Shown here: in pieces, positions 25,074 to 47,439 of the stretch
Layout of the letters: each line of letters opens with the position of its first letter
Numbering within the stretch: position 1 is the stretch's first letter
Source of the DNA: Bdellovibrionota bacterium
GTDB taxonomy: Bacteria > Bdellovibrionota_C > UBA2361 > CAKMMH01
Length of the DNA: 56,392 bases
NCBI GenBank assembly: GCA_050952645.1
Contig: JBMNLI010000016.1
Location: 1 to 56,392 of the forward strand
Direction of reading: 5' to 3'
Notes under the pieces: generated by a model
Database searches by the model: none
Told to the model about the DNA's origin: nothing
The model's input: only the letters and a program-made list of their open reading frames with translations
Translations under genes and position numbers: made by a program

Positions 25074-28000
25074 GTCTTAATCCCCTTACTAATTCGGGTC
25101 GTTTTTTCACGAGGATGTAAAACGTCAAAAAGTTTTTGATTGCATCGGTCTTAATCCCCTTACTAATTCGGGTCGTTTTTTCAATGTAAATGAAAAAACG
25201 ACAGCAAGAAATAAAGACGCTGTTTGTCTTAATCCCCTTACTAATTCGGGTCGTTTTTTCAGAGCGGGGATTAATACAAGAGGGTGGTTATGAATTAGTC
25301 TTAATCCCCTTACTAATTCGGGTCGTTTTTTCTTTAAGAAAGAAATTTGGTTTATTAAGACCGGTGCAGGAGTCCAAGTCTTAATCCCCTTACTAATTCG
25401 GGTCGTTTTTTCCCCAATCCTAGAAGCAATTAATAACAATAAAATAAAAGGTCTTAATCCCCTTACTAATTCGGGTCGTTTTTTCCCTGAAGATGTAGCA
25501 GGGAAGGATGTGATTGGCGTCCTTCCAGTCTTAATCCCCTTACTAATTCGGGTCGTTTTTTCCCGTGAACCAATACATTAAGTATGACCACGACGCAAGG
25601 GTCTTAATCCCCTTACTAATTCGGGTCGTTTTTTCTTCTAAATTTTATGATAGGGATTTAGAGACTGAAATCTCGTCTTAATCCCCTTACTAATTCGGGT
25701 CGTTTTTTCAGAAAAAAAATGAACATACAAAACATTAAAAAATTAAGTCTTAATCCCCTTACTAATTCGGGTCGTTTTTTCTCAGACAGGTGGATTTAAG
25801 TCTGATTTAATATTTTATAATCAAGTCTTAATCCCCTTACTAATTCGGGTCGTTTTTTCTTTCCTTTTTTTAAAAGTTTATTTGCTTCTTTAATCTGCTT
25901 CGTCTTAATCCCCTTACTAATTCGGGTCGTTTTTTCTGTAAGTAAGTATATTCCTTGTTATCCCTCATACAAATGTCTTAATCCCCTTACTAATTCGGGT
26001 CGTTTTTTCTAAAAAGGAGAAAAAAATGAAAGTACAAACAGTAAAAAAGTCTTAATCCCCTTACTAATTCGGGTCGTTTTTTCAAATAACACAGAGGCTT
26101 ATCCAAGTCTTCTAAGGGTTTGTCTTAATCCCCTTACTAATTCGGGTCGTTTTTTCAAGACAGGTGGATTTAACGTTTGGTAACTCTGAAGAGTCTTAAT
26201 CCCCTTACTAATTCGGGTCGTTTTTTCAAAATTACAAGATCGAGATTTTGAGACTAAAATCTCGTATGAGTCTTAATCCCCTTACTAATTCGGGTCGTTT
26301 TTTCTTGGCAATATATGCCAACAGCGTGACGGAAATTCCGTTGGGTCTTAATCCCCTTACTAATTCGGGTCGTTTTTTCAAAATAATATTCGCATCTTTA
26401 CTTTTAACTTGCTCTGCTTGGTCTTAATCCCCTTACTAATTCGGGTCGTTTTTTCATTGATCGATCCTGTCCGTTTTTATATCGACGAGTCTTAATCCCC
26501 TTACTAATTCGGGTCGTTTTTTCTATAGACAGAGAAGTCCCACAACTTAAGACTTGCGAAGTTAAAGGTCTTAATCCCCTTACTAATTCGGGTCGTTTTT
26601 TCAAGCAATAGAGTTGATTTCACCTGTCTGCTACTACATGTCTTAATCCCCTTACTAATTCGGGTCGTTTTTTCAAGAAACAGGCGAGAAAGTGCAATGT
26701 TTGTCGTTGCACTGGGTCTTAATCCCCTTACTAATTCGGGTCGTTTTTTCGAAGATGTAGCAGGAAAAGACATCATCGGCGTGTTGCCAAGTCTTAATCC
26801 CCTTACTAATTCGGGTCGTTTTTTCCCACCACGGGGATAATGGGGACTGCAGTCGAGTTGCTTTCAGTCTTAATCCCCTTACTAATTCGGGTCGTTTTTT
26901 CAGTTTCTTGTTTTTTCTGAAAATTTAAAAGACGAAGAAGCTAGTCTTAATCCCCTTACTAATTCGGGTCGTTTTTTCTAAAAAAGCTGTCATAAATAAA
27001 ATTGCGAAATGTCTTGGTCTTAATCCCCTTACTAATTCGGGTCGTTTTTTCTTTGAGAAAATTTTAGAAAAAGTGTCTATTTGGGCAGTCTTAATCCCCT
27101 TACTAATTCGGGTCGTTTTTTCAAGAAGGTAATAGGGTGCAATGCTTGTCGTTGCACTGGTTGGTCTTAATCCCCTTACTAATTCGGGTCGTTTTTTCTT
27201 TGTCCAAATTAAAAAATCGAGATTTTGAGACTGAGTCTTAATCCCCTTACTAATTCGGGTCGTTTTTTCCTGGGAAAATAACAGCAAGAAATCGAGTTGC
27301 TGTGATCAAGTCTTAATCCCCTTACTAATTCGGGTCGTTTTTTCAGTTAAAGATGATTAATTATTACAAGGAGATAGGTCTTAATCCCCTTACTAATTCG
27401 GGTCGTTTTTTCTCAGACAAGCGCGCCTTTTGATGTTGTTGAGTATGTCTTAATCCCCTTACTAATTCGGGTCGTTTTTTCTATATTGATGCAGGGACTA
27501 ATAACAATCGGGCTTATGATGTCTTAATCCCCTTACTAATTCGGGTCGTTTTTTCTTTGTGCGCCCATACATCAAGTATGACAACGACGCTCGTGTCTTA
27601 ATCCCCTTACTAATTCGGGTCGTTTTTTCTTAACTGCTACAGAAAACTATACAATGATCGCCAAGAATCGTCTTAATCCCCTTACTAATTCGGGTCGTTT
27701 TTTCTTTTTTGAAAAAATGACGATAATATAATTATAAGATAAAGTCTTAATCCCCTTACTAATTCGGGTCGTTTTTTCTTTGTAGCCAATATATTGAATT
27801 TGACAACGACGCTCGTCGGTCTTAATCCCCTTACTAATTCGGGTCGTTTTTTCTCGAGTTGCTGTTTTAAAAAAAATCGTTAAATGTCTTGATGTGTCTT
27901 AATCCCCTTACTAATTCGGGTCGTTTTTTCTTGGATTTAATTTGTAGAAGTTTCTAAGGAGAACATCAAGGTCTTAATCCCCTTACTAATTCGGGTCGTT

Positions 28001-31000
28001 TTTTCCGTTAAATGTCTTGATGTATTGGCACAAGATGAGTTTTGTAGGTCTTAATCCCCTTACTAATTCGGGTCGTTTTTTCTGGCGTCCTTCCAATGGC
28101 GTTAGCAAGTGCAGCTAACACCAGTCTTAATCCCCTTACTAATTCGGGTCGTTTTTTCGAAATCGAGGAGCGGTCTTAAATAAGATTGTCAAGAGTCTTA
28201 GTCTTAATCCCCTTACTAATTCGGGTCGTTTTTTCTCATAGGCGTATTACCAATCGCGTTGGCATCACTGTGCAATGTCTTAATCCCCTTACTAATTCGG
28301 GTCGTTTTTTCCAGGAGGCTCAAGTAATTGATGAAAGAACCAAGTCCGTCTTAATCCCCTTACTAATTCGGGTCGTTTTTTCCATCAAAGACGGTGAGTT
28401 TAAATTAATTACTCACGCAACGTCTTAATCCCCTTACTAATTCGGGTCGTTTTTTCCTATTTGTCTATGGCGAAAATGATTGAGATGTTTGGGTCTTAAT
28501 CCCCTTACTAATTCGGGTCGTTTTTTCTCCAAATTAGAAAACCGAGATTTAGAAGTTGAAATCTCGGTCTTAATCCCCTTACTAATTCGGGTCGTTTTTT
28601 CACGTGCTTATCTTTCAGGAATAATCCATAGCAAGTTGGGGTCTTAATCCCCTTACTAATTCGGGTCGTTTTTTCACCTGTACTGTATATCGCAAGGACA
28701 GAAAATACCCAAGCGAGTCTTAATCCCCTTACTAATTCGGGTCGTTTTTTCGAGATGTTTCTTGAGTTCTGCAAAAGCACGGGACTAAACCCGTCTTAAT
28801 CCCCTTACTAATTCGGGTCGTTTTTTCTTGCAAGGCGTTAAAGAAGAAATGGCAAGCTATTGGTCTTAATCCCCTTACTAATTCGGGTCGTTTTTTCAGG
28901 AGATGGAGTCCGGTTGACTCCAATACAGGAGTTATGGGGTCTTAATCCCCTTACTAATTCGGGTCGTTTTTTCTTAAATTAATTACTCACGCAACAATAG
29001 AAGATATTAAGGTCTTAATCCCCTTACTAATTCGGGTCGTTTTTTCACATCATCTTCATTGATGGCAAGCCGGCTTATAGGTCTTAATCCCCTTACTAAT
29101 TCGGGTCGTTTTTTCAATAAATTATTTGAAAAATGTAAATAAAAAAATGAATACAGGTCTTAATCCCCTTACTAATTCGGGTCGTTTTTTCTTTTTTATG
29201 GAGGTTTTATTATGAAAAAACTATTATTTTGTCTTAATCCCCTTACTAATTCGGGTCGTTTTTTCAGGCAAAAGATATCTGGGTATCCACAGCGGATACT
29301 ACTAGTCTTAATCCCCTTACTAATTCGGGTCGTTTTTTCATTATAGAAAATGTGTCTATTTGGGCAGAAAATATAATGTCCAGTCTTAATCCCCTTACTA
29401 ATTCGGGTCGTTTTTTCAATTGTTAGAGAAGCTGAAAATTGGTTGGCTGATGAAAACCAGGTCTTAATCCCCTTACTAATTCGGGTCGTTTTTTCTTTCT
29501 TGTATGGAAGACAGGTGGATTTAACGTTAGCTAAAGAGTCTTAATCCCCTTACTAATTCGGGTCGTTTTTTCTTACAAAGGAGATTAAAAATGAAAAAAG
29601 AATTGAGTCTTAATCCCCTTACTAATTCGGGTCGTTTTTTCATGGAAGGTTTGAGAGGGCGTTAAAAAACGCCCTAAAAGACACCTGTCTTAATCCCCTT
29701 ACTAATTCGGGTCGTTTTTTCTTTTGAAATCACCGCTTCACTTTCAGACTGCCAGAGTAAGTCTTAATCCCCTTACTAATTCGGGTCGTTTTTTCTGGCC
29801 AGGAAGTATTGACAGCGAAAAAATAAGAAAAGAGCAGGTCTTAATCCCCTTACTAATTCGGGTCGTTTTTTCCTTCGCGTTACGGGATTAAAATGGTATG
29901 ACCCGACATTGGTCTTAATCCCCTTACTAATTCGGGTCGTTTTTTCATAAGCGTGGGCGAATATAAACTAATAACTCACGCTACTGCAGGTCTTAATCCC
30001 CTTACTAATTCGGGTCGTTTTTTCCTGGATGCACAAAACCTATGTAAACAACATTGAAAATGTCTTAATCCCCTTACTAATTCGGGTCGTTTTTTCAGCA
30101 GTATGTTTACGATGTATCTTTATACCATGACCAACGTCTTAATCCCCTTACTAATTCGGGTCGTTTTTTCCGACTATTTCGAGAAAAACAACATTTCTGT
30201 TAATAGTCTTAATCCCCTTACTAATTCGGGTCGTTTTTTCAAAAGTAGCCCTTAAAGGAACCTCATATGAAGATAGGGTATGGGTCTTAATCCCCTTACT
30301 AATTCGGGTCGTTTTTTCTTGGCTCGGCTAAGAGATCGTTTAAGACGAATGCGACAAGGAGTAAGTCTTAATCCCCTTACTAATTCGGGTCGTTTTTTCA
30401 GGATTAAGATGAAAGAAAAAATAGTAGTAACAAGACATAGTCTTAATCCCCTTACTAATTCGGGTCGTTTTTTCTAATGGGGGAAGCAATAGAATTGCTC
30501 GACCCAATCTGTGTGTCTTAATCCCCTTACTAATTCGGGTCGTTTTTTCCTTCCTAAAAAAAATTTAAAATTATTAGTTAGCTATCTTTTTTAGTCTTAA
30601 TCCCCTTACTAATTCGGGTCGTTTTTTCCGTTGCACTGGTTGCAACACCTTTCATATGACGTGGAAAAGTCTTAATCCCCTTACTAATTCGGGTCGTTTT
30701 TTCTTTAATAAGTGTGAATAAAAAAATGACTGCAAGAAACAGAAAAGTCTTAATCCCCTTACTAATTCGGGTCGTTTTTTCATGAAAAAATTTTGAAGTA
30801 CGTGTCGATTTGGGCATCTTCCGGTCTTAATCCCCTTACTAATTCGGGTCGTTTTTTCCCTAACTCTGTGTGCGAAATTGCAATGCACAGGGCAGGAGGT
30901 CTTAATCCCCTTACTAATTCGGGTCGTTTTTTCGGGCTATTGCCCAATAAGTTTAAGGAAAAAGATTGTCTTAATCCCCTTACTAATTCGGGTCGTTTTT

Positions 31001-33351
31001 TCTTTTTCTAAAATGTGGAGCAGAGAAGAGTTAGAAAACCTTTCGTCTTAATCCCCTTACTAATTCGGGTCGTTTTTTCTGAAAAGGTTATGAAATGTTT
31101 GAATGTATTGGCTAACGATGAGGTCTTAATCCCCTTACTAATTCGGGTCGTTTTTTCTTATACAGAAATCGAAGGAGATCTTAGCCGTGATAAAATTATG
31201 GTCTTAATCCCCTTACTAATTCGGGTCGTTTTTTCATAGTCAGATAACAAATGGAAATTTTGAGAGGGCATTAAAAAACGTCTTAATCCCCTTACTAATT
31301 CGGGTCGTTTTTTCACGACCAAGCTGGAAGAATCAACCTTTCAGCAGATGAAAAGTCTTAATCCCCTTACTAATTCGGGTCGTTTTTTCAGACGTTTTAA
31401 GAGAGATATCATCATCTGGAAACTGTCTTAATCCCCTTACTAATTCGGGTCGTTTTTTCATTTTTGGAAATATTTTGAAATTAAAAAACCACAAACGTCT
31501 TAATCCCCTTACTAATTCGGGTCGTTTTTTCATTAAGACTGGGCAAGGCGTTCAAATGATGACCGGAAGTCTTAATCCCCTTACTAATTCGGGTCGTTTT
31601 TTCAATTATGAAAAGTCTTGATATATTGGCTAACAATGAGTTCGGTCTTAATCCCCTTACTAATTCGGGTCGTTTTTTCAAAAGGAAAAGCTAGAGAATA
31701 TTCACCTTTAGCTTTAAGTCTTAATCCCCTTACTAATTCGGGTCGTTTTTTCACACACAGGTATCCATAGCGGTTATTATTATGGTGTAACCGGTCTTAA
31801 TCCCCTTACTAATTCGGGTCGTTTTTTCATTATGAAAGCTTTTCCTATTTTGTCAAAAGATGATTTCGTCTTAATCCCCTTACTAATTCGGGTCGTTTTT
31901 TCGAAATAAATTATTTAAGAAGTGTTAATGGGAAGATGACGTCTTAATCCCCTTACTAATTCGGGTCGTTTTTTCTGTATTGGCTCACGACGAGTTCGTA
32001 AGCCAATATAGTCTTAATCCCCTTACTAATTCGGGTCGTTTTTTCTATGAAAGCTTTTCCTATTTTGTCAAAAGATGATTTCGTCTTAATCCCCTTACTA
32101 ATTCGGGTCGTTTTTTCTAAAATATGGAAAAAATAAACAACGGAATTTTGAAAGGTCTTAATCCCCTTACTAATTCGGGTCGTTTTTTCTAGGAAAGCTG
32201 AAAATTGGTTGGCTGATGAACAGATAACCAGTCTTAATCCCCTTACTAATTCGGGTCGTTTTTTCATGAACAGACGGGTGAAAGGGTGCAAGATTTATTA
32301 TTGGTCTTAATCCCCTTACTAATTCGGGTCGTTTTTTCGAAATTAATATGTAAAAGAATTGATGCAATTGAGGGTCTTAATCCCCTTACTAATTCGGGTC
32401 GTTTTTTCATTATAAGATAAAAAATCAATTATTTATGGAGGTAAAAAATGGGTCTTAATCCCCTTACTAATTCGGGTCGTTTTTTCGACGAGTTCGTAAG
32501 CCAATATATTGGCTACGATCGTGTCTTAATCCCCTTACTAATTCGGGTCGTTTTTTCTCTCCATAGAGGCTTTTTTGCTTCCGCACTTGAAATAAAGGTC
32601 TTAATCCCCTTACTAATTCGGGTCGTTTTTTCTCATCAAAAAGATTATTAAGAGTCTTGATGTATTGGCTCACGAGTCTTAATCCCCTTACTAATTCGGG
32701 TCGTTTTTTCAAGCCAATATATTGGCTACGTTACTGGTGCAAGACGAGTCTTAATCCCCTTACTAATTCGGGTCGTTTTTTCAGAATTATTGATAATAGG
32801 AAGTAGTTTAAACACAATTTCTGTCTTAATCCCCTTACTAATTCGGGTCGTTTTTTCCAATGCTTGTCTTTTCATTGGCTTCAGTGCCTTTCTGTCTTAA
32901 TCCCCTTACTAATTCGGGTCGTTTTTTCGTGGCTTTAGAAGTTTCTAAGGAGAACATCAAGGTGGTCTTAATCCCCTTACTAATTCGGGTCGTTTTTTTC
33001 TAAAAAACAATTCCATGATTAGCCCATTCGGGCATTCGTGTCTTAATCCCCTTACTAATTCGGGTCGTTTTTTCTTATTTGGGAAAAGGAGATAAAATAT
33101 GGAAAAATTAAGTCTTAATCCCCTTACTAATTCGGGTCGTTTTTTCTGGCTACGATCGTGATGCTAGACGATTAAGTCCCTTTGACTGTCTTAATCCCCT
33201 TACTAATTCGGGTCGTTTTTTCATATTGATGGGAAACTTGAAAAGTTTACATCTGAAACGTTAAGGTCTTAATCCCCTTACTAATTCGGGTCGTTTTTTC
33301 TTATCAGCGTTATGATACTGCAATCCCCTTACTAATTCGGGTCGTTTTTTC
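25074..33351 (-). CRISPR. Type III CRISPR array; 35-bp repeat, about 111 full repeats plus one truncated, about 111 spacers (mostly 33-46 nt)
   Basis: Repeat on + is GTCTTAATCCCCTTACTAATTCGGGTCGTTTTTTC; transcribed strand GAAAAAACGACCCGAATTAGTAAGGGGATTAAGAC (8-nt tag ATTAAGAC). Leader lies next to cas2. Counts are manual. Confidence 0.98.
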
Positions 33352-33611
33352 CGCGTCTCTTTTTTACACTGGTTTTTCCAGTATAAAAACTCCTCTTTTC
33401 GCAGACCTTAAAGACATTCTTATAAATTACTCCTTTTTAAATTAAAAAACAAGAAAAATCTTTTATAACTTATTAGATTTTCAATGTTTCTTAATAATCG
33501 CAGACCTAAATATATTTCAATAATAGTAAACCCTTACTTCTACCCTTATTCTATTGTGTAAAAACACTTTTCGGGCTTCCGTAAATAAAAACAAACAATA
33601 GGTCTGCGATC
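33352..33611 (-). promoter_or_regulatory. Leader of the type III array
   Basis: AT-rich non-coding region between cas2 and the first repeat, with three copies of TCGCAGACCT. Confidence 0.8.
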
Positions 33612-33890
33612 CTATAAAATTATATATGTTTTACTAAAATCTATATATTCTCCTAGACCTATTATATCATTCTTTTTACTACATTCACCACAAAGTGGAA
33701 ATAATTTTACTCCATCTAAATCTGGTTCTATTTCTTTTTTTATTCGTTTAGTCATCGCTAAAAAACTTTTCGGACTTAACGAAACCTCAAAAATCGATCT
33801 CTGGACTCTCTTTCCAAAATCCTCCATCACTTTAGCAATACGCCTTAAACGTCCCGGGTTCGCTATATCATAACAAACTAACACTATCAT
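33612..33890 (-). CDS. cas2: CRISPR-associated endonuclease Cas2
   Basis: LVCYDIA..RLRRIAK, RVQRSIFE. Confidence 0.95.
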   Translation of the reverse strand: MIVLVCYDIANPGRLRRIAKVMEDFGKRVQRSIFEVSLSPKSFLAMTKRIKKEIEPDLDGVKLFPLCGECSKKNDIIGLGEYIDFSKTYIIL

Positions 33891-33912
33891 AATATAAACT
33901 TATCCCCCATTT

Positions 33913-34188
33913 TTAAAAAATCTGATAATTAACATTCGTAACTTTTAATCCCTTGCCTAAAATAATCTCATTTTCAATGCAAGTCGAACATATCCTATAA
34001 ATTCTAAAAGAATCTTTCTTCAAATTTAAATTCATAGCAGCATAAGCTCTAATTTCTCCTAACTGCTCTAAAGTAATATCACACTCAAATACAGACTTTT
34101 GAGTATTCTGTCCGTAGCCTAATAAAAACTTATGCATCTTTATTAATCTTTTCGGACTCGCTATATCATACGTAATAACCGTTATCAT
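33913..34188 (-). CDS. cas2: CRISPR-associated endonuclease Cas2 (second paralog)
   Basis: VITYDIA, QKSVFEC, DSFRIYRIC. Confidence 0.93.
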   Translation of the reverse strand: MITVITYDIASPKRLIKMHKFLLGYGQNTQKSVFECDITLEQLGEIRAYAAMNLNLKKDSFRIYRICSTCIENEIILGKGLKVTNVNYQIF

Positions 34189-34249
34189 AACTTCCTAACT
34201 TTACTTCTAATACTACAATTATTTTAATACTAAAATTGTCTTTTAAACA

Positions 34250-35410
34250 TTACCTTAATAATAATGGCACATACTCACCAACATCACCCTCAATTACTCT
34301 TCTATAATATCTAGCTTGAAAATTAATAGCATCTAAATATGTAAGCTCCTTTCCTGCTAATGAGTGGTAAAACTTAGTTGATAATTTCTTTTCAAAAGCT
34401 TCAATAACTTTTCTAATCGAAGTATCTACTATCTTTATTGGATACTTGCCAGTCGTGTTTATATTTTCTTCTAATATTTCAGAAACTCTATGTTCAGGAA
34501 GTGGCGTGAAATCATCATCAAGAGTATAAGGTCTCATAAGCCCGATAGGGTCATTTACAACTTTACTTAAATCACTTATCTCTCCTTCTTCCTTAGCTTC
34601 TTCAATAGGAGACACCTCCTCTCTTTCAAAAGAAGAATCGTTTAAAATTTCTAAATTCAAAATAGAAAGCATTAAAGTATCAGCTATTATCGGTCTAAAC
34701 TCTTCCATTAAATCAAATACTAAAGAATATCTTCCATAATCGAGAGTGTGAAGAGTTCCTACATAAGGCTCTAATGATGCAAGTCTTATAGCAATATAAA
34801 CCTTGTTCATTAAAAAAGTATATAATAATGATAGAAGCGAATTTACAGGATCCGTCGGCGGTCTTCTTACTCTCTTTGTAAATCCCCAATCTTTTGTTAA
34901 ACCGTATTGCAAAGCAGAAAAATATAGTGCAGAACCTCTACCCTCATAACCTCTTACGCTATCTACACTCTTTGCTTCACCTATATCATTTAAAAGCATT
35001 CTTATTTGCCCAGCTTTATCCTTGGCTATCGATGATTTTTTTGTGCGTGAAATTCGCATTAGCACTGTAATTAAATTAGTTAATTTTCCTATTACTATAC
35101 TTTTAGATGTTTTTAAACAAAACTCTTTATCTTCAGACAGTAAAAATTGCTTTCGTCTTAAAAATATATTTTTAGGTTCTTCTTGTGCTAATCTTCCTAT
35201 ATATTTACCATTTTGAGCTAGGAACACTGCATCGATACCAAACTTAAAAATAAGAACTATTGCAGGATGTGTAATTTTTATATTACCTATTATTACTATT
35301 TGAGAAACTGCGTGAGTGAAAATTGTATGAGAATACTCTCCTTTTTTTATTACTAGATTGCGACCTACTTTTACAAGCTCAGAGCCTTGCTCCGTTAGGT
35401 AAACTATCAT
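34250..35410 (-). CDS. cas1: CRISPR-associated endonuclease Cas1 (type III-associated, with acidic insertion)
   Basis: RGYEG, RRPPTDPVNSLLS, GTLH, SLVFDLMEEFRP. Confidence 0.97.
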   Translation of the reverse strand: MIVYLTEQGSELVKVGRNLVIKKGEYSHTIFTHAVSQIVIIGNIKITHPAIVLIFKFGIDAVFLAQNGKYIGRLAQEEPKNIFLRRKQFLLSEDKEFCLKTSKSIVIGKLTNLITVLMRISRTKKSSIAKDKAGQIRMLLNDIGEAKSVDSVRGYEGRGSALYFSALQYGLTKDWGFTKRVRRPPTDPVNSLLSLLYTFLMNKVYIAIRLASLEPYVGTLHTLDYGRYSLVFDLMEEFRPIIADTLMLSILNLEILNDSSFEREEVSPIEEAKEEGEISDLSKVVNDPIGLMRPYTLDDDFTPLPEHRVSEILEENINTTGKYPIKIVDTSIRKVIEAFEKKLSTKFYHSLAGKELTYLDAINFQARYYRRVIEGDVGEYVPLLLR

Positions 35411-36946
35411 TTAATCACCTAAATATTTTTTTACATCTTCTATCATTGCTTTAGTTTCTTTTGAAAAAAACCATCCTTTACTTCCATTGCCTTTTTCAAT
35501 GTTACTCTTTTTTTCATTTATCGCTTCAATAAAAAAAGGAGCAAGTATTTTTTTATATTTATCACTTTGCTTCCTAAAATCACTCTTATATGTTTTATCT
35601 ATTGCATTTGCATACTTACACTTATCAACTATCTTTTTTAAATCATCAGGCATATTTGCTATTTGCTTTTCTTGCTCTTCTTTAATTTTTTTTTGCTCTT
35701 CTTCAATCTTCTTTTGTGCTAACTCCTCTTTTTCTCGCTCTTTTAAAATTTCCTGCATTTTTAATTTTTCTTGTTTTAAATTTTCTTCCATTTTTGCTTG
35801 CTCTTTTTTTATGCTCTCAGATAATTTTTTCATTTCATCTAAAGACAATTCCTTCAAAGAAGCCCAAGAATAAAATTCAAGACTATTTTGATTTCTTATT
35901 TCATACGTTTCATTTGCACACCAAATCGTAGTCGTTCCCGAAAGACTTTTTTTGATTTGTCCTATTTCTATACTTCTACTATTTTTTATAGTCACTCCTT
36001 CTGCACCTGAATGTCTTCCAATTTGCATAGGATATTCATCATTTGGAATAGCACTTTTAAGCTTTATTTGATACGATCTTCCATCTATATAATACGGTCT
36101 ATTTTCAAGATTAGTTAACATTTCACCATAAAACCGATTTGTAGAATTAAATAATATTTTTTTATCTATAGTTTTTTTTACAATATTATTATCGATAGGT
36201 TGCATAATCGTAATTTGACCTAAAAACTTACTCCCAGTAGGGATAACTTCTAACCGTTGCTTAGACGTTAAGTTTTTACCACTATTTTTTTTCTTAAAAT
36301 TCCTTAAGTAAACGATTTTTGTTTTTATATCGCCTATAGGAAGAAAATCTGAAACCTTTACTAGTCTAAAAGGATCTGTTTCTGTTTCATTTTTATTACA
36401 ATTTAACAATCTACATTCAAAACCTTTTGAATCCTTGTTTTTTTCTTGTTGAGTTGCAGACTTATTCTCCTTATCTGCAATCAGATTTAAATAAGCCGTT
36501 CTTAAACTTCCTTTCACAGATGAACCAGGAATATAAGGTTTCCCAGTCTTTTTTAAAAACGCAGTCCTATCGATTACAAATTGATCATATGATTTAGCAT
36601 TTTCGTATTCTTTTTTATATTCTTTTGCAATCCCTATTTTTTTATAATTTAACGATTCGACATTAAGCTTTTGTATATAATCACAAACTTTCTTTATGCC
36701 ATTCTTTTCATTTATCTTTTCATCTAATAAAAGCTTAGAAAGTTCTTTTCTTTGCGATTTATCCATAAGCCTTGCAAGTTCTAATGGATCGTAAACTAAT
36801 ATTTCACCATCACCGACCTTATAACTAATAGGATCATAAATCTCATCACAACCAATATGTATAGGAGAACGTGTCGTTAATATAACATCTATTACTTGCA
36901 TTGCTTGCTTACTTTCATTTATCATAAACTTAACTCTCCTTCCCAA
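35411..36946 (-). CDS. csm5: Type III-A RAMP Csm5 with charged C-terminal extension
   Basis: TRSPIHIG, PYIPGSSVKGSLRTA, DPFRLVKVSD, IGRHSGAE. Confidence 0.9.
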   Translation of the reverse strand: MGRRVKFMINESKQAMQVIDVILTTRSPIHIGCDEIYDPISYKVGDGEILVYDPLELARLMDKSQRKELSKLLLDEKINEKNGIKKVCDYIQKLNVESLNYKKIGIAKEYKKEYENAKSYDQFVIDRTAFLKKTGKPYIPGSSVKGSLRTAYLNLIADKENKSATQQEKNKDSKGFECRLLNCNKNETETDPFRLVKVSDFLPIGDIKTKIVYLRNFKKKNSGKNLTSKQRLEVIPTGSKFLGQITIMQPIDNNIVKKTIDKKILFNSTNRFYGEMLTNLENRPYYIDGRSYQIKLKSAIPNDEYPMQIGRHSGAEGVTIKNSRSIEIGQIKKSLSGTTTIWCANETYEIRNQNSLEFYSWASLKELSLDEMKKLSESIKKEQAKMEENLKQEKLKMQEILKEREKEELAQKKIEEEQKKIKEEQEKQIANMPDDLKKIVDKCKYANAIDKTYKSDFRKQSDKYKKILAPFFIEAINEKKSNIEKGNGSKGWFFSKETKAMIEDVKKYLGD

Positions 36947-37902
36947 GGTACTACTATTGAAAAAGCTTGTTGAAGCACATTGCCATCGTACTGCTTAGAA
37001 ACACCTTGCAATGCACTTCCTATAAAAGGCTTGCTTAATCTTTTATCATTTTTTACCTTAAAAACTGCACTCTCGTCTATCATTAAAATCGGATTCTTAA
37101 AAGGGTTTCCTTTAAATACAGACGCATCTCCATGTTTTCCAAACTTAGTAATAGGTTGATAATATATTTCTTCAAAACAATCATTTTCGCCATAAACAAA
37201 AGGAGATAGTGTATAATAATTATCTTTTTCTAAACTAGGAAGTTGGCACTCAAAATGATTTTCTATATTAAATTTTCCCATACCTATCGAAGCATCTTTT
37301 CCAAATCCAAACTTTCCTATATTTGTTAATGCTTTGGTGATGCCATCTAAGCTTGTTTTATTTTCATCAAATAAAATAAATATAGCTAATTTATACTCAG
37401 GCGATATGTAAGTTTTTTCTGCTCCATAAGGCGCAAACTCTTCGCTAGTAGTAGTAAAAGTTTCTCTATTTATTTTATTATGCATAGCATTTTCTTTTTT
37501 TAAAATATTTTTATGCTCTTCATAATTTTCAATACTACTAATAGTAAAGTTTTTTTCTATATCTTCTTTAGCTACTGAAAAATATCGCTTTTCTTTTTCT
37601 GCTTTTCTATATTTTACATCATCAGACTTAGGAATTTTTTCGACATCTATATTACTTAGAAGCGATGGCTTTTTAAAAATATACTTATCGTCTTTATAAT
37701 AAAAAGCTGATGAAAAAATTATGCTTGGGTTTTGCCCATTATAATCTTTAATAAAATCATCAAACGAGACTTTTAAAATATCTTTATTATAAACACACTG
37801 CCAACAAAAAGAACCAAAAAGCGTATCACCTCTTAGCTTTGTAGAAAAAGCAGATATTGGTTTTAAAATAAAACTGTATAACTTATAGTTATTATTATCC
37901 AT
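36922..37902 (-). CDS. csm4: Type III-A RAMP Csm4
   Basis: RGDTLFG, HNKINR, GFGKDASIGMGKF. Confidence 0.92.
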   Translation of the reverse strand: MDNNNYKLYSFILKPISAFSTKLRGDTLFGSFCWQCVYNKDILKVSFDDFIKDYNGQNPSIIFSSAFYYKDDKYIFKKPSLLSNIDVEKIPKSDDVKYRKAEKEKRYFSVAKEDIEKNFTISSIENYEEHKNILKKENAMHNKINRETFTTTSEEFAPYGAEKTYISPEYKLAIFILFDENKTSLDGITKALTNIGKFGFGKDASIGMGKFNIENHFECQLPSLEKDNYYTLSPFVYGENDCFEEIYYQPITKFGKHGDASVFKGNPFKNPILMIDESAVFKVKNDKRLSKPFIGSALQGVSKQYDGNVLQQAFSIVVPWEGELSL

Positions 37903-37925
37903 TCATAGCTTCCTGTATTTTTAAA

Positions 37926-38705
37926 TTATTTTTTTCTTTCTTTACTTAACTTATTTTGCATATTCTCATCATCAAAAGTAAACTCGACTTTTCCATAGCC
38001 TCTACTACCAGAAGCACCCAAAGCATCTTTTTCCAATAAAGCTATACCTTCGATAAGTTTTTTTTCATATTTATTTAACTCTCCTTTATCCCCATCTCCT
38101 TTATTCTTATCTTCTTGATTATCTTCTTCACTTCCTTTATTTATATTAGTCGAAAAGATTTTTAATGAAATATTAAACTTAAATTTAACTCCAGCTACAA
38201 CCCTCTCAATAAATCTAGGATTTTCAGCAGTGCCTTTTATTCTATTTATTGAATTTTCAGCTTTTACTTCATACAAATTTTCTTCATCATTAGATTCAGC
38301 CAAATTACAATCAGAAAAAATAAGCCTCGTAGGACCTCCTGTATATTTATCAGAGCTATCTGCTCCTGCACCAAAAAGCTCGATTATTAAATCTATATCT
38401 TCTTGATCATCATATTTTTTTCTATTCTCATCATCATTCTTACTAGGTTGGAGGACACTACTATGAAAATTATGACCTAAAGGCTTTCCATTTGTAGAAG
38501 TTATAGCAGATGTTTTTAACTCTAATAAAGAGCGAATTTTCCCTTTTAGCGATGAGCCAGGTATATAAGGTTTTCCTGTTTTAGAGTTTTTTATAACTGG
38601 CGAATCTGTTCCACCTATATGCATAGCAACATCACCAGCACCAATATGTAAACCACTTTTTAATTCTATCGTTCCTGTGTATTCTTTAATTTCTTTTAAT
38701 TGCAT
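37926..38705 (-). CDS. csm3: Type III-A RAMP Csm3
   Basis: GLHIGAG, GGTDSPV (catalytic Asp retained), PYIPGSSLKGK, NPRFIERV, LGASGSRGYGKV. Confidence 0.95.
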   Translation of the reverse strand: MQLKEIKEYTGTIELKSGLHIGAGDVAMHIGGTDSPVIKNSKTGKPYIPGSSLKGKIRSLLELKTSAITSTNGKPLGHNFHSSVLQPSKNDDENRKKYDDQEDIDLIIELFGAGADSSDKYTGGPTRLIFSDCNLAESNDEENLYEVKAENSINRIKGTAENPRFIERVVAGVKFKFNISLKIFSTNINKGSEEDNQEDKNKGDGDKGELNKYEKKLIEGIALLEKDALGASGSRGYGKVEFTFDDENMQNKLSKERKK

Positions 38706-38738
38706 AATTACCTCTCTTTGAAATTTTATTTTTAAACG

Positions 38739-39158
38739 TTAATCTTCTTTTGGGCAGTAAAACTTATAAAATGCTATAAAAGATTCAAAAAACAATGTAG
38801 CATTTTTTAAATCTTTATAATCTTTAATTTGCCCTATAATATTTTTTAAAAAATTATAAAAATTAATTGATATCAAATTACGTCCTCTAGCGTATGCAGC
38901 TTTTGCAACAATCATATTTACTAAGGGTAAACACTCGTCAAATTTCGCTTCTTTATTATCTGAATTATTTACTATGTCATTATATTTTAATAATTCATCA
39001 AAGAATTTTCTTATTTGGCTCTGCTTATCTATATCTTTTGCACTCTTTTTTCTATCATCTGCTATACATTTTGCTTTTCCCTCAGCCACATCAGAAAATA
39101 ATGTTGAACGTATTTTTTTATTATTTTTATCATCATAAAATTTAAAATTTTCTTCCAT
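38739..39158 (-). CDS. csm2: Type III-A small subunit Csm2
   Basis: SQIRKFFDE, AKAAYARGR, FFESFIAFYK. Confidence 0.92.
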   Translation of the reverse strand: MEENFKFYDDKNNKKIRSTLFSDVAEGKAKCIADDRKKSAKDIDKQSQIRKFFDELLKYNDIVNNSDNKEAKFDECLPLVNMIVAKAAYARGRNLISINFYNFLKNIIGQIKDYKDLKNATLFFESFIAFYKFYCPKED

Positions 39159-39163
39159 ATTCT

Positions 39164-41890
39164 CTACCTATTCCCCCTTATATTATATAAAATTGTCCAA
39201 AGTGAAATCCTTAGTTTTGAACGATTTTCGCTAATCGTGTCGACTAAAAATCCATATAACTCTTTAATATCTTCATCACTAAGCTCTACATCACCAATTT
39301 TTCTTTTTACATTTCTAGTGCATTGGTATGCTAAATGAGATTTCCATCTCATACATTCGCACGATTTAATATCACACCTATCTTCACTCATAAGCTTCTT
39401 TTCATCTTCACTCATTCTAATATAATTATTTAAACTATATAAAAATGAAGTCGATATGCGACCTTCATTATATAATTCACACACTTTATCATTAAACTTA
39501 TCTAGTGCTTTTAAATCTTTTTTATTAAAAGAAACAGTTTCATTAAAAACCGTTAAAGCATTTTTCCCTGTATTGTCTTTTGATTGATTTAATGCTTCTT
39601 CTACATTGTATCTCATCATAGGAACTGGGATATTATCTTTACATATAAAAATACCTGCAGAAAAATGTAAGAAAGTGTTGTTTCCAACATAGCTTTTAAA
39701 TTTTTCGCTTAAGTCTCTAGCTAAATCTATAATTACATTCCAAGGACCTATTAAAAATAAATCATCACCACCACCAAACACCGTATAAACGGCTTTGTAA
39801 AGCTCTTTATCTTTACTATCACCGCCATTTTGTAAATAATACGGCAGATAATATGCAAAAAAGAAATTCAACTGCCTGCTTAAAGTTGCCATACGTGAAA
39901 CCGTATATCTATCATCTTTTAACCCACACGCCATTATCGCACCTAAATCATCAACGTCAGCCTTTAAAACTCCAAGTGCATTTATAGGACCATCATCATT
40001 TTCTTTTTTAATTTTTATTCCTGTTGCTTCATACAAATTCGCTTCTTCTGCAATCGCTTCAAATGTTCGAACATCTTCTTCATCAATTGGTTTATATTTA
40101 GGCACATAACCGCTTATAAATTTCTTTGCAACAAAAACCTTATTTGTATCTTGCGCACTACTAGCAACGCTTTTAGTATCAGCATCTTCATAAATACCAT
40201 AATCCCAAACCTTATATAAAAAATCACACTTTAATAAATCTTTAATAACCTGCTCAATATTTACGGTACAAATAGCAAAGTCTTCAAAAACATCTATTAA
40301 GCTTACTTGTTTTTTTGAGCTTTCACGTAATCTTTCACCGTAATCTTCTCTATATCCTTTATTTACAACTACTAAATATCTATTTTTAACGAATTCTTTA
40401 CCAAAACTTTCAAAGTCTTTACAAATCTTACACTTCCCATCTGCTTTTATAGGTCTTTTACCACAATAACTACAAACATTTTGAGCATTTTCAAATTTAT
40501 CTAAATAATCTGTAAATACTCCAAAATCTTCACGCTCAAATTTCTGATTTTTCTCTTTATCCATTTCTTTATGCAATCTATTATTTAATATTCTATAAGA
40601 ACCAGATTCTGCAAAATCATTTGAGCTAGCTTCTACAAAAGTTAAACCAAAATAACATTCACCATAAAAATTTTCTTTAAGCCAATCGTTTATTTCTTTT
40701 CTTATAGCTTTAACTTTTTCCTTAGCCTCGTCAATATTCGGTGCTAAAATCTTAAAGTTAGCCCCAGCATTAAAGATAACGCTCGTATGTGGCAAACCTA
40801 ATTCACTGCAAATCTTACTAGCAGCAAGTTCTGCATAAATACTTACCATAACTGAGCGAGCTCTTAAAATCTTTGATGCATTCTTATTACTTTCGCCTGA
40901 AAAATCACCAAAAATAAAATTTTGAATTCCGAAAAAATCACCAGCAATCAAAATAAACTTATTCTTCTCTCTCTCTTGCTTACTACTTAAATCTACCTTT
41001 CCTAAATCTTTAAATGGGTCTTTCTCAGTTTCAGATTTTTTATGATATAGATATAATGCGGTAGAAAAAGCAGAGGTTGCTAAACTATGATCGTATAGCG
41101 AAGTGTCTTTTAAATTTCCACGTGCTCTTGCTTCAGGGATATTGCATGCATACTTTAGCCATAAACTATCAAACGCCTCAAACCATAATCTTTCAGCCCC
41201 CTCTCCCTTTACACAATTCGATTTCTCTCTTACTTCTTTTTTAAAATCTTCTAATAACTTTTCATAATCTGAAATCGCTTGATCTTTTTCAATTTTATCT
41301 AAGACTTGCGGAAAGATACTCTTAGGCGTCATTTTATTTAACTCAAACTTGTATTTATCATCGCTGTTTGAATCGATATTATTTTCTTTATTAATTTCTC
41401 CATTATTTTTTTCAACATTTTTTAATTCAACTTCCGATAATACAGAAATAAGTCTAGTGCTTAAATAATCTTTTGGATAAACGTAATCTTCAGAGTTGAC
41501 TCTTTCTCTTTTACTTGATAAGCAATCTGCCTCTTTAATAATATTTACATACGGCGTTAAAAAAGTATCAATTCCATTATTATTATTTAAATGATGTCTT
41601 GCAGACATATAAACTAACGGTTCGCCATCACCCCAATCTTTACTCGTTAAAAACTTTGGGAATCCAAAATTCTCATCTTCTATCGCTAAGCAAGTATATA
41701 GTGCATGTTTGTGGGTATAATTTCCATTTTTATTAGGTAAGATATGCGTTTCAGAAGCTTTATATTTTTCATCATAGTCATTTCTTGTCTTTTCATCAAT
41801 TTCTACAAGCTTTCCTAAGTCATGCATAAATCCTGCAATCGCTACTTTTAATGTTGTTTTATCTAGCTCTATATTTTTCATACGCTCCAT
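39164..41890 (-). CDS. cas10: Type III-A Cas10/Csm1 with HD nuclease and cyclase palm
   Basis: MHDLGK HD motif, SLYDH, CSYC..CKIC, LKADVDDLG, GGGDDLF (GGDD intact). Confidence 0.97.
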   Translation of the reverse strand: MERMKNIELDKTTLKVAIAGFMHDLGKLVEIDEKTRNDYDEKYKASETHILPNKNGNYTHKHALYTCLAIEDENFGFPKFLTSKDWGDGEPLVYMSARHHLNNNNGIDTFLTPYVNIIKEADCLSSKRERVNSEDYVYPKDYLSTRLISVLSEVELKNVEKNNGEINKENNIDSNSDDKYKFELNKMTPKSIFPQVLDKIEKDQAISDYEKLLEDFKKEVREKSNCVKGEGAERLWFEAFDSLWLKYACNIPEARARGNLKDTSLYDHSLATSAFSTALYLYHKKSETEKDPFKDLGKVDLSSKQEREKNKFILIAGDFFGIQNFIFGDFSGESNKNASKILRARSVMVSIYAELAASKICSELGLPHTSVIFNAGANFKILAPNIDEAKEKVKAIRKEINDWLKENFYGECYFGLTFVEASSNDFAESGSYRILNNRLHKEMDKEKNQKFEREDFGVFTDYLDKFENAQNVCSYCGKRPIKADGKCKICKDFESFGKEFVKNRYLVVVNKGYREDYGERLRESSKKQVSLIDVFEDFAICTVNIEQVIKDLLKCDFLYKVWDYGIYEDADTKSVASSAQDTNKVFVAKKFISGYVPKYKPIDEEDVRTFEAIAEEANLYEATGIKIKKENDDGPINALGVLKADVDDLGAIMACGLKDDRYTVSRMATLSRQLNFFFAYYLPYYLQNGGDSKDKELYKAVYTVFGGGDDLFLIGPWNVIIDLARDLSEKFKSYVGNNTFLHFSAGIFICKDNIPVPMMRYNVEEALNQSKDNTGKNALTVFNETVSFNKKDLKALDKFNDKVCELYNEGRISTSFLYSLNNYIRMSEDEKKLMSEDRCDIKSCECMRWKSHLAYQCTRNVKRKIGDVELSDEDIKELYGFLVDTISENRSKLRISLWTILYNIRGNR

Positions 41891-41979: not shown

Positions 41980-43068
41980 TTAACCCTCTAATATTTCAAA
42001 CAAATTCTTTGACAAACTTATTCCACATTTAGTATCTTTACCCTTACTAACACTACTTATACATATTTGATTAACCGTTGAAAATTCAAAATGTTCTAAA
42101 AATTTCTTTTTAATTTTACTTTTATATGAATTAAAATTTTCTTTAGAAATATCTTTAATTCCAGTAGTTGATAAATTATATTTTTTATTTGAGATTTTAT
42201 CATAAGTTTTTGATGCATTTTTACAAAAATCATTTAAACTTTCAGACCTATTTAAATAGCAATCAAAACAGTTTTCGCATTCTTTATTTTTACAATTAAA
42301 TTTTATTTTCTTATACACAAAATATAAATAAAATGCAAAAAGCGATGATTGAAGTCTGCAAGATATATCACCTATGCTTATCGTTTGATCTGGAATATTT
42401 ATAATGACTTTTTGTTTTTTATAATCATTAGTATTATTTACTAGCTCATTAACTGGCAAATTTAAAATCGTAGCTAAATTAAGATTAGATGAAAGTTTTA
42501 CATAAGGCATCTTTATTAAAGAAAAATGCTCTTCTTTATCTTTAGAAACTATATCTTGCAAGTATTTAGGAAGACTTTTTATTTTATCTTTAGGCAATTT
42601 TCCTGACGGACTTAATGTGTAAATCGTATCTTGTTCTCTTCCGAACAACTGTGCGGATAATGAAAGACAAGAACTCATACCTTTCATTCCACCTGTAATT
42701 AAAAATGATATTCTAGAATTTTTATTTAAATATTTTTTCGTAATTTCAAAACATTCTTTTAAAAATAGCTTATTATCATCTTCCGTTAAAATAGTTTCTA
42801 TGGGCTTTCCTTTTTTATTTTTAGGAACGATTAGACACTTATTATCGAAATCAAAATCTAGCTTGTATTCTTTTTTAAATTTTTCTAATGCACCATTTTT
42901 TAATAAATTATTTACGAATACTTCTTTTCCTTTATTCGTAGTTATTATATACACTTTATTTATTTTAACCGTCTTATCTATTACAAAAGACTTTAGTGCA
43001 GATAACAGGACTTTATATTCTAGCCCAATAGTTGCAATTAATATGTTTTCCATAAAAAAACACCTCAA
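41980..43068 (-). CDS. NE0113/Csx14-family CARF protein with Cys-rich, putative DNA-binding C-terminal domain
   Basis: ILIATIG, IITTNKG, ITGGMKGMS..LSAQLFGREQD CARF motifs; CKNKECENCFDC; FNSYKSKIKK helix. Confidence 0.8.
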   Translation of the reverse strand: MRCFFMENILIATIGLEYKVLLSALKSFVIDKTVKINKVYIITTNKGKEVFVNNLLKNGALEKFKKEYKLDFDFDNKCLIVPKNKKGKPIETILTEDDNKLFLKECFEITKKYLNKNSRISFLITGGMKGMSSCLSLSAQLFGREQDTIYTLSPSGKLPKDKIKSLPKYLQDIVSKDKEEHFSLIKMPYVKLSSNLNLATILNLPVNELVNNTNDYKKQKVIINIPDQTISIGDISCRLQSSLFAFYLYFVYKKIKFNCKNKECENCFDCYLNRSESLNDFCKNASKTYDKISNKKYNLSTTGIKDISKENFNSYKSKIKKKFLEHFEFSTVNQICISSVSKGKDTKCGISLSKNLFEILEG

Positions 43069-43095: not shown

Positions 43096-44139
43096 CTAAG
43101 ATATAACTTCTATTTTTCCTAGTCCAAATGAGGTTTGCTTTCCTAAATGTATAATTTTTGCTACTTCAAGAAGTGGCATAAAAATTTCTAAATCTCCCTT
43201 ATACTTTATTTCTCCTAGAAGCCCACCTAGGAACATCGAGCGTTCTTGTCTTAATGAATATCTTTTTCTATCTTCCCAGTAAGTATTATCTTCTATTATC
43301 TCTACTGCCTCCGCCTCTTTAAGGAGCGTTTCAGTGTCGATTAACGAAACTTCGCTTCCGTACATTTTAAATAAAGTATCTATTCGCCTTAGTATAACTA
43401 TAATAAGCGTTTTGAAACTTAATTTATTGTTTAAAAAACTTTTTTGTTTAAATCTTAGTGGAGTTTCTAAAATTACATTTATTATATTAGTTTTATTGTT
43501 TAAAAATTTTTCGAAAAACTCTTTATCGATAACGATAAGCTCATCTTTTACGATTCCATTATTTATTTCTTTACTTATCTCTGAATATACCTGTTTTTGA
43601 TTTATTAAAACTTGAGAAAGAGTAAAGGAAGTTCTTTTCCCATCTCTATCTTTTTTTCCGAAACCAATCTTACCCATTTCTATAATAGCATAAATAAAGT
43701 ATGAAATATTAAATATATATTCACCAAAAAGAATTAAATTAAATATAAAATAATCTCCTTTTTGGAATCTAGTTCTTTCATTATCTAAAGTGTCAATTAT
43801 ATATGGAGGCGATGAGGAATATATTCCTTGTTTTTTTAATTCTTCGTCATCTCGTTCAAAAATTTTTGCATATAAACAATTTTTTTTTATTAAACACCCT
43901 TCGCAATCTTTATCTTCTAAGCCACAAGAGATTCTTTGAAGTGCACGACCAAAAACTCCCCTAAATGTAGAGCCTTTAAACTTTGGCAAAATACAATCTC
44001 TATCGAACTTACATTTAAAAGTAAACTTAGCTACATTTAGAGATTGGGCTATATTTCCATAAATATTTTTACTAGTTTCTTTACTTGTATCTAAACTTAT
44101 ATTTTCTTTCATAAATTTATCATATTTTATATTGTTCAT
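43096..44139 (-). CDS. cas6: CRISPR RNA-processing endoribonuclease Cas6
   Basis: FKGSTFRGVFG, Cys cluster, RYSLRQ, HLGKQTSFGLGK G-loop. Confidence 0.93.
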   Translation of the reverse strand: MNNIKYDKFMKENISLDTSKETSKNIYGNIAQSLNVAKFTFKCKFDRDCILPKFKGSTFRGVFGRALQRISCGLEDKDCEGCLIKKNCLYAKIFERDDEELKKQGIYSSSPPYIIDTLDNERTRFQKGDYFIFNLILFGEYIFNISYFIYAIIEMGKIGFGKKDRDGKRTSFTLSQVLINQKQVYSEISKEINNGIVKDELIVIDKEFFEKFLNNKTNIINVILETPLRFKQKSFLNNKLSFKTLIIVILRRIDTLFKMYGSEVSLIDTETLLKEAEAVEIIEDNTYWEDRKRYSLRQERSMFLGGLLGEIKYKGDLEIFMPLLEVAKIIHLGKQTSFGLGKIEVIS

Positions 44140-44521
44140 ATTTTCTAAACATTACGTGTTTGAAAATGCGACTAATTTTTATTTCACCAGTTTCTAGAGT
44201 TTCCTCTATAGCTTCTCTTTTCGTTGTAGCATAGATGGGAATTAGTCCTAATTTAAAAGCACATTCAACCATATAAAAAGTAGCCCCGAAATCTCCTTGG
44301 ACGAGTAAAAAATCCTTCTCTTTTCCTATATTTTTTAGCCAACTAATTATAGGGGACAAGTAATTTTTTAATGATATTACATTTGCAGGAACTTCTCCCC
44401 AAGCTTTTTGAATTTCACTATTAGGATAAATAAAGTTATCTACTAGCAGATGTTCTTTAGCATCGAGTTCTTGCTCTAAAGTTAAGTGATGATTAAATAA
44501 AGTTATAAAAGATCTTTTCAC
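44120..44521 (-). CDS. csx20: CRISPR-associated protein Csx20 (putative cOA ring nuclease)
   Basis: LFNHHLTLEQ, LVQGDFGATFYMV, PIYATTKR, FKHVMFRKY match the Csx20 pattern; downstream of the CARF effector. Confidence 0.85.
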   Translation of the reverse strand: MKRSFITLFNHHLTLEQELDAKEHLLVDNFIYPNSEIQKAWGEVPANVISLKNYLSPIISWLKNIGKEKDFLLVQGDFGATFYMVECAFKLGLIPIYATTKREAIEETLETGEIKISRIFKHVMFRKYEQYKI

Positions 44522-47240: not shown

Positions 47241-47439
47241 CACAATATATTGAATATTTCAATATACTATAGACAATATATTGTGCTTTGCAGGAAAACA
47301 CAACTTACTATTAAAAAAAATATCTAATGATTTTGAACGGAAATTAGGCGAACCTACTAAATATTTAACATCACATTAGGTTCGCATAGAAGTAATACTC
47401 AATCTTTTTTAAATTTATCAACCTACATTATAACAATTT
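47241..47439 (-). promoter_or_regulatory. Leader of the type I-C array
   Basis: AT-rich; inverted repeats CACAATATATTG/CAATATATTGTG (47241-47285) and GCGAACCTA/TAGGTTCGC (47348-47385). Confidence 0.8.

Follow-up and report, generated by a model that had tools for sequence, protein, structure and literature searches.

Cellular Csx16 (PF09652/TIGR02620) and Csx20 have been shown to cleave cyclic tetra-adenylate (cA4), and Csx1 is defined as a cA4-activated protein (PMC12409355). Ring nucleases that belong to other families are established in viruses (PMC8284326, PMC12830947, PMC13148439). Among 28,114 phage genomes, 2 were reported to carry Csx16 itself (PMC12409355), so the idea of a phage Csx16 is already in print. 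Spacer acquisition by type III-A CRISPR systems peaks downstream of early phage promoters, regardless of the gene located there. In Streptococcus thermophilus 25 of 125 early-gene spacers lie on ORF31, and such acquisition regions contain anti-CRISPR genes (PMC13575424). The present analysis concerns the 56,392-nt contig JBMNLI010000016.1 of a Bdellovibrionota bacterium (to be referred to as the window), which carries a type III-A array of 110 spacers. Among these, 46 match two small genes, a csx16 gene (10 spacers) and an orphan gene for a protein of 145 residues (36 spacers), and all 46 are on the + strand.

The Csx16 targeted here is similar to cellular Csx16 (PMC12409355) in its Pfam score, which is above the cut-off, its length of about 95 residues, the shared motifs, the predicted dimer, and the family of the top, though weak, fold match. 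It differs in scoring below the TIGR02620 cut-off, in having relatives outside CRISPR loci, and in being known in this case from the host spacers alone. Like AcrIII-1 (DUF1874), AcrIII-2/Crn5 and phage Crn4b, it is a small candidate cA4 destroyer of mobile elements, with a weak likeness in predicted fold to AFV3-109 and 8Y7G. A search of the PDB gave no sequence match of the clade to solved AcrIII-1, a separate family. The array resembles the early-gene hot spots of S. thermophilus (PMC13575424) and Thermus thermophilus (PMC7515739) in its one-strand bias and in having many spacers concentrated on few small genes. Unlike those cases, it is one natural array, in which at least six variants of the orphan gene are sampled over nearly the full length, together with at least three of a ring-nuclease-family gene. 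A search of the literature, with subscription journals mostly outside its coverage, found neither an assay of a phage Csx16 nor spacers directed against one.

Spacers matching csx16 and the orphan gene

The array and its leader are located as follows.

25074-33351, - strand: type III-A CRISPR array, with 111 full 35-nt repeats (25074-33300), 110 spacers, and a leader-adjacent 30-nt partial repeat ending at 33351
33352-33611, - strand: presumed AT-rich leader (from the sequence), the interval between cas2 and the array

A sigma-70-like site was searched for in this leader and none was found. Because the leader separates cas2 from the array, as it does in the sister genome G001, we infer that the CRISPR RNA (crRNA) is read from the - strand, so that the + strand text of the spacers is in the sense of the target mRNA. 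The order repeats-leader-cas2-cas2-cas1 is identical in the sister genome (locus L002), and the - strand end of the repeat resembles a type III 8-nt handle.

The original prediction held that about ten spacers, read on the + strand, encode pieces of one small Csx16-like protein. All ten of its peptides are present on that strand at the coordinates it gave. The spacers were scored with a position-specific scoring matrix (PSSM) built from 112 of 120 Csx16-like homologues, excluding 8 near-copies of a shortened protein of G001. The collection was made with an alignment of the G001 protein and the spacer peptides, which gave 355 proteins, 120 of them listed. The presence of the spacer peptides in the query favours the closest clade, and the seeding is circular for the closeness of this clade, not for its existence; the retrieved proteins are independent database records. 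At 14 bits or above there are 10 matches among the 110 spacers on the + strand (all at 17 bits or above) versus 1 on the - strand, with an expectation of 1.4 per 110 (2200 shuffles), in agreement with the predicted reading of the mRNA sense on the + strand. At 20 bits or above there are 7 on the + strand and 0 on the - strand, with 0.05 expected.

Nine of the ten supported spacers are those of the original prediction, and the tenth (spacer 3) had been overlooked. Spacer 69 (30171-30205), called weaker there, is not supported: it is outside the top 30, has 4 of 11 residues identical to the nearest clade, and is out of register with the spacer at 29947. Spacer 78 (30859) was also considered as a csx16 piece and rejected after PSSM scoring and peptide comparison. 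The supported spacers are listed below in the order of the protein, with identities to individual homologues.

30400-30439, + strand: spacer 72, residues 1-10, start codon region with the T-R-H motif; 29.4 bits; 9 of 13 identical to P0037
25261-25297, + strand: spacer 3, residues 19-30; 17.0 bits; 9 of 12 identical to the L023 protein
29947-29989, + strand: spacer 66, residues 23-36; 18.1 bits; 11 of 14 identical to P0010
28383-28421, + strand: spacer 45, residues 23-34; 17.1 bits; 11 of 12 identical to P0032; belongs with spacer 53 to one variant (exact overlap of 22 nt)
28974-29011, + strand: spacer 53, residues 29-40; 23.8 bits; 11 of 12 identical to P0060
25486-25527, + strand: spacer 6, residues 36-49; 43.8 bits; belongs with spacer 41 to one variant (exact overlap of 13 nt)
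26751-26790, + strand: spacer 23, residues 37-49; 36.8 bits; 6 synonymous codons and 1 replacement codon relative to spacer 6
28236-28276, + strand: spacer 43, residues 45-57; 31.8 bits; 13 of 13 identical to P0032
28083-28123, + strand: spacer 41, residues 46-58; 29.5 bits; 13 of 13 identical to P0010
26305-26344, + strand: spacer 17, residues 52-64; 28.9 bits; 10 of 13 identical to P0040

These spacers cover 56 residues within residues 1-64 of the protein of about 95 residues, leaving residues 65-95 uncovered. P0010 and P0032 are full-length metagenome Csx16 proteins, each identical to one spacer over all 13 residues. A CRISPR-linked Csx16 shares only 3-6 residues with each peptide and the host Csx20 shares 3-5, so that the spacers do not match the host csx20, as the prediction stated. 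No csx16 was found elsewhere in the host's own genome (93.75% complete), PF09652 included. The peptides are short (10-15 residues) and the homologue set was seeded with them, which might suggest that the resemblance is due to chance. This explanation has a negligible probability, given the 7 matches at 20 bits or above, the two 13/13 identities, the consistent register, and the bias of differences toward third codon positions.

The prediction of at least three csx16 alleles is borne out. Three mutually different spacers overlap at each of residues 23-30, 37-40, 46-49, and 52-57, and three variants suffice. In several overlaps 25-40% of the bases differ, mainly at third positions; over 110 shared codon pairs, the differences at codon positions 1, 2 and 3 number 27, 21 and 51. 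P0010 and P0032 have 64% sequence identity. The dominance of third-position differences and the 64% identity of the matched proteins fit separate lineages rather than successive escape mutants. All ten spacers are located within the older 72 positions of the array (p 0.011 post hoc; rank test p 0.054).

The main target of the array is the orphan gene, and csx16 is the second hot spot, as the former takes 36 spacers and the latter 10.

25183-33187, + strand: 36 orphan-protein spacers, nos. 2, 7, 8, 16, 19, 21, 22, 24, 26-30, 34, 37, 38, 40, 42, 47, 52, 55, 58, 73, 75-77, 81, 88, 92, 93, 97, 100, 102, 103, 105 and 109, with the relatives P0130 and P0131
29573-29606, + strand: spacer 61, a ribosome-binding-like site and the first five orphan residues; below the score threshold
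29496-29537, + strand: spacer 60, together with spacers 15 (26157) and 10 (25782) the last residues and stop codon of what is likely the orphan gene; below the score threshold

A profile from 15 spacer peptides found the two relatives among 1,640 candidates. At a score of 33 or above, the + strand gives 36 matches among the 110 spacers and the - strand 1, with 0.25 expected, and 22 of the 36 spacers were absent from the query. The spacers cover 128 of the 145 residues, with identity at 326 of 450 residues. At least six variants are present, with six overlapping in one five-codon window, and the differences at codon positions 1, 2 and 3 number 184, 121 and 304 (725 pairs). Six further spacers score below the threshold: spacer 61 fits the start of the gene, spacers 10, 15 and 60 fit the stop, and spacers 91 and 94 fit a variant. 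They would bring the total up to 42 of 110. The clustering is also evident among the spacers themselves: same-strand overlaps join 58 of the 110, and strong overlap pairs (score of 36 or above) number 30 on the same strand versus 0 on opposite strands. Other same-strand overlapping pairs (4/87, 9/13, 39/106, 57/90, 59/96, 62/83, and 95/108) point to further small target genes.

P0130 is the only protein retrieved from 1.84 billion representatives, and a query with P0131 returns just P0130 and P0131. The orphan protein has no match in Pfam, PADLOC, the PDB or ESM Atlas, and an E value of 0.059 at best in PHROG. Searches did not find its gene in 59 IMG/VR stretches, in the phage records, in 123 other genomes of the phylum, or in 90 fetched loci outside the array; plasmids gave one chance hit. 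The structure model of the protein has a predicted local distance difference test (pLDDT) score of 44 and is unusable.

These counts bear on the arms race focused on an anti-CRISPR gene that was originally proposed, in which selection would make the host aim specifically at the quencher transcript, with the three variants arising one after another as escape alleles in a single invader. There are 10 of 110 spacers on a gene of 0.3 kb in at least three variants, and destroying the mRNA of a quencher would have special value. The position of all ten in the older part of the array would also fit, as later invaders could have lost or changed the gene. However, the orphan gene has 3.6 times as many spacers, the divergence of the csx16 variants, both in the overlaps and between the matched proteins, agrees poorly with an escape series, and acquisition hot spots track the promoter and not the gene (PMC13575424). 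The existence of several csx16 variants stands, the focus on the anti-CRISPR gene is weakened, and specific targeting is quite unlikely.

Family, predicted fold and location of the Csx16 branch

The target is a Csx16-family gene, as had been proposed. The five nearest full-length proteins score 60-66 bits with PF09652, against a cut-off of 25, and the PADLOC Csx16 model matches the clade with E 6.6e-17. With hhalign, the clade aligns to CRISPR-linked Csx16 at a probability of 99.1 across 96 columns, and the motifs R-H, H, G-x-L-P and E-L-R-G-x-E-L are conserved in register. Residues R9, H10, G46, P49, R71 and G72 are invariant across 71 sequences and are aligned with CRISPR-linked Csx16. The spacers display R9, H10, H33, G46 and P49, and R71-G72 lie outside their coverage. 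Locus L076 provided the sole CRISPR-linked comparator; among 251 genomes around G124, 6 have Csx16 and none of these has cas genes in the 3-kb loci. A tree of 120 homologues was quick and weakly supported (81 at the fork of the clade, with 3 other proteins inside) and is not used as evidence.

The model of P0010 has five strands and a pLDDT of 91.6. Among 48,161 chains, its top fold match is the viral protein AFV3-109 (2J6C), with a Z score of 4.6 and an rms deviation of 2.7 over 73 aligned residues, and the fourth is the Crn2 part of 8Y7G (Z score of 4.0). We take 2J6B and 2J6C to be the same protein. A Z score of 4.8 to 2J6B has been reported for Csx16 (PMC12409355), in line with the P0010 result. 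P0010 is predicted to form a homodimer, with a score of 0.82 versus 0.00 for the best control; the runs agree in 100% of contacts at a pLDDT of 92 or above. In calibration, 20 of 30 solved pairs reached the mark for a homodimer, as did 1 of 23 single chains. A PDB sequence search with the Csx16 profile gave, among the best 60 matches, only designed ankyrin repeats, which were taken as a motif artefact and rejected.

From the family, the conserved residues, the predicted dimer and the host effector type, it is reasonably likely that the invader Csx16 is a cA4 quencher, and thus a candidate ring-nuclease anti-CRISPR. Two results count against this assignment. Four proteins of the clade score 22.7-28.2 bits with TIGR02620, below its cut-off of 46.35, which makes it a divergent branch. 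Moreover, the fold Z scores are weak, with none reaching 5, and according to the tool's warning a Z score below 8 possibly reflects a common arrangement. The suggested search against Csx16 by hidden Markov model (HMM) and structure is thus positive for Pfam and negative for TIGR02620, with a weak fold match. It is somewhat unlikely that the phage-type protein does not act against type III systems, and instead binds or cuts another nucleotide signal or serves as a sponge. The low TIGR02620 score and the 32-34% identity to the CRISPR-linked copy would be consistent with this, and the related Csx15 acts mostly as a cA4 sponge (PMC13148439). On the other hand, the protein retains the polar residues conserved in the family, a dimer is predicted for it, and the host effector is of the cA4 type.

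The phage-type branch is found as stand-alone genes on viral contigs and plasmids. In IMG/VR, 5 loci from 460 candidate stretches and 44 from 58 correspond to 47 distinct contigs, several of them near-duplicates, and JGI metagenomes contribute at least 12 loci from 597 stretches. The 17 host Cas proteins have no match in 59 loci of the relatives; the same test recovers cas1 and cas2 in L076 and L002, and distant Cas families could escape it. Array-like repeats in two of the 59 loci were dismissed, as that in L066 is a tandem repeat and that in L022 is a stretch inside a pentapeptide-like repeat gene. Of 132 neighbouring open reading frames (ORFs) in 37 of 44 loci, 34 have Pfam matches, including terminase, portal, polymerase and integrase, and none is a Cas protein. 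PHROG genes beside other csx16 copies encode terminase, portal, capsid, integrase, repressor and lysin.

The donor could instead be a plasmid, another non-viral element or cellular DNA acquired from other bacteria. Four plasmid records were matched; three carry stand-alone copies, with no annotated cas gene in the viewed stretch, and one copy (34% identity) is CRISPR-linked. A GC-rich, shortened copy is present in the G001 chromosome, and the viral contigs searched include none with the orphan gene. However, the closest plasmid copies have 27-46% identity to P0010, compared with up to 66% for viral copies, and CRISPR-linked Csx16 matches the peptides at few residues. A GTDB scan found the close clade in 0 of 462 stretches and the broader set in 2 of 27, both with phage-like surroundings as judged from their ORFs. 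A non-phage donor is unlikely.

The G001 copy is the one PF09652 protein of that genome and the sole case among 60 relatives examined. It is encoded by a lone ORF (L001:1396-1677, equivalent to G001:C27:3249-3530) in a patch of 51-61% GC between AT-rich genes, the surroundings having 15-35% GC. This ORF is chromosomal and distant from the cas genes, and its product lacks roughly 16 residues in the centre as well as the conserved Arg of the R-G motif; close relatives are on short ENA contigs. Among the mobile-type proteins, tandem or duplicated domains or fusions with long extensions are seen in L080:7000-8294, L082, L083, L077:7007-9022, L040, L053 and L063. A Deinococcus plasmid (L075) and an archaeal plasmid (L030) carry stand-alone csx16 within runs of small ORFs, and the copy in L075 has two ssb genes nearby, an arrangement like that of plasmid leading regions.

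Origin of the spacers and proposed mechanism

Several related mobile elements, probably phages, are likely to have infected the host repeatedly and to have left the 46 spacers as a record, and both genes are likely early and strongly transcribed. The known preference of type III-A acquisition for early promoters accounts for the pattern better than does specific targeting of the anti-CRISPR gene. This reading is based on the limitation of csx16 coverage to residues 1-64, the bias for a pattern like a ribosome-binding site followed by ATG (12 spacers on the + strand versus 1 on the - strand), and the fact that one gene accounts for a third of the array, comparable to ORF31 in S. thermophilus.

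Several points weigh against this reading. The suggested mapping of the spacers to phage contigs was unsuccessful: blastn of 25109-33100 against a set of 50,697 phage records produced just 2 hits, both at chance level, three DNA patterns gave zero protospacers in IMG/VR, the fetched loci have no match to the spacers beyond 22 nt, and three related genomes have only repeat or low-complexity matches to them. Because no protospacer DNA was found, the phage origin, the early timing, and the linkage of the two genes are deduced indirectly. P0010, P0032, P0130 and P0131 are also without retrievable genomic context. A tblastn search for Csx16 in the same cultured-phage records found none, while two have been reported from an HMM search (PMC12409355). 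The orphan coverage is broader than the 10-50 bp peak reported in S. thermophilus, and in T. thermophilus the strand bias is ascribed to selection, not acquisition (PMC7515739). Either acquisition or selection yields a few small genes, one strand, and many variants. The original claim that the invader carries a Csx16-like enzyme agrees with the branch on viral contigs and the cA4-type host, but a contig with a protospacer was not recovered.

In the proposed mechanism, the Cas1-Cas2 module would take spacers mostly from the stretch immediately downstream of the invader's early promoters, and guides that catch early mRNA would be favoured by survival. Recognition by the Csm complex would activate Cas10, and the cA4 produced would switch on Csx1. 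The invader Csx16 would fairly probably dimerise, cleave cA4 like cellular Csx16, and blunt Csx1. Guides against csx16 mRNA would raise the alarm and also cut the quencher message through Csm3, independently of cA4. Csm cleavage of the target message is an established cA4-independent route. This would be a useful by-product of early-gene targeting and gives no evidence of a host preference for the anti-CRISPR gene.

What is new here is the link of a phage-type Csx16 to a cA4-type III-A host, and the orphan gene. With 47 viral contigs, the Csx16 branch is much more frequent there than the two reported phage genomes would indicate. P0010 and P0032 are named full-length proteins for tests. In addition, most of the sequence of an invader gene can be read from a type III array, in this case leading to the candidates P0130 and P0131, which belong to no known family. 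A bolder and doubtful extension is that the array is a ranked list of invader counter-defence genes, in which the orphan protein represents a new family of anti-defence or host-takeover proteins that are made first, in one early cassette with a Csx16-type anti-CRISPR. If so, no Csx16-type anti-CRISPR would have been shown to encounter a cA4 type III host before this one, and spacer-to-protein tiling of type III arrays would serve generally to discover such genes when no phage genome is at hand.

The host III-A locus

The host genome, of which the window is contig C16, has 1.95 Mb and 31% GC. The genes on the far side of the leader from the array are as follows.

33612-35410, - strand: cas2, cas2 and cas1, the adaptation module (Pfam)
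35411-39158, - strand: csm5, csm4 and csm3 (repeat-associated mysterious proteins (RAMPs), named from size and order) and csm2 (Pfam RAMPs and Csm2_III-A)
39164-41890, - strand: cas10/csm1 (TIGR02578, 573 bits), with the HD motif at 23 and GGDD at 707
41980-43068, - strand: CARF5/NE0113-type CARF protein, which shares the locus with Csx20 and Csx1
43096-44139, - strand: cas6
44120-44521, - strand: csx20, the host ring nuclease (NF040559, 146 bits, cut-off of 70)
44521-45999, - strand: csx1, a CARF-HEPN effector with the DxTH and RxxxxH motifs

The locus is intact and of the cA4 type (Cas10-Csx1-Csx20), with the use of cA4 judged from the effector family. The array has no full-length self-target in the host's own genome. 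Spacer 46 (28457-28492) matches the coding strand of csm4 (37178-37200) at 22 of 23 nt (E 1.5e-4), a partial match that is perhaps due to chance. The leader-most unit (33301-33351) consists of a 21-nt spacer and a repeat missing five bases; it may affect further acquisition, or may be a feature of the assembly.

A separate type I-C locus is located to the right of the III-A locus (46252-47258 and 52961-54997). Its array of 15-16 repeats has irregular, short end spacers and zero overlap with the III-A spacers. The cas3-like region of this locus is split over three ORFs and appears broken.

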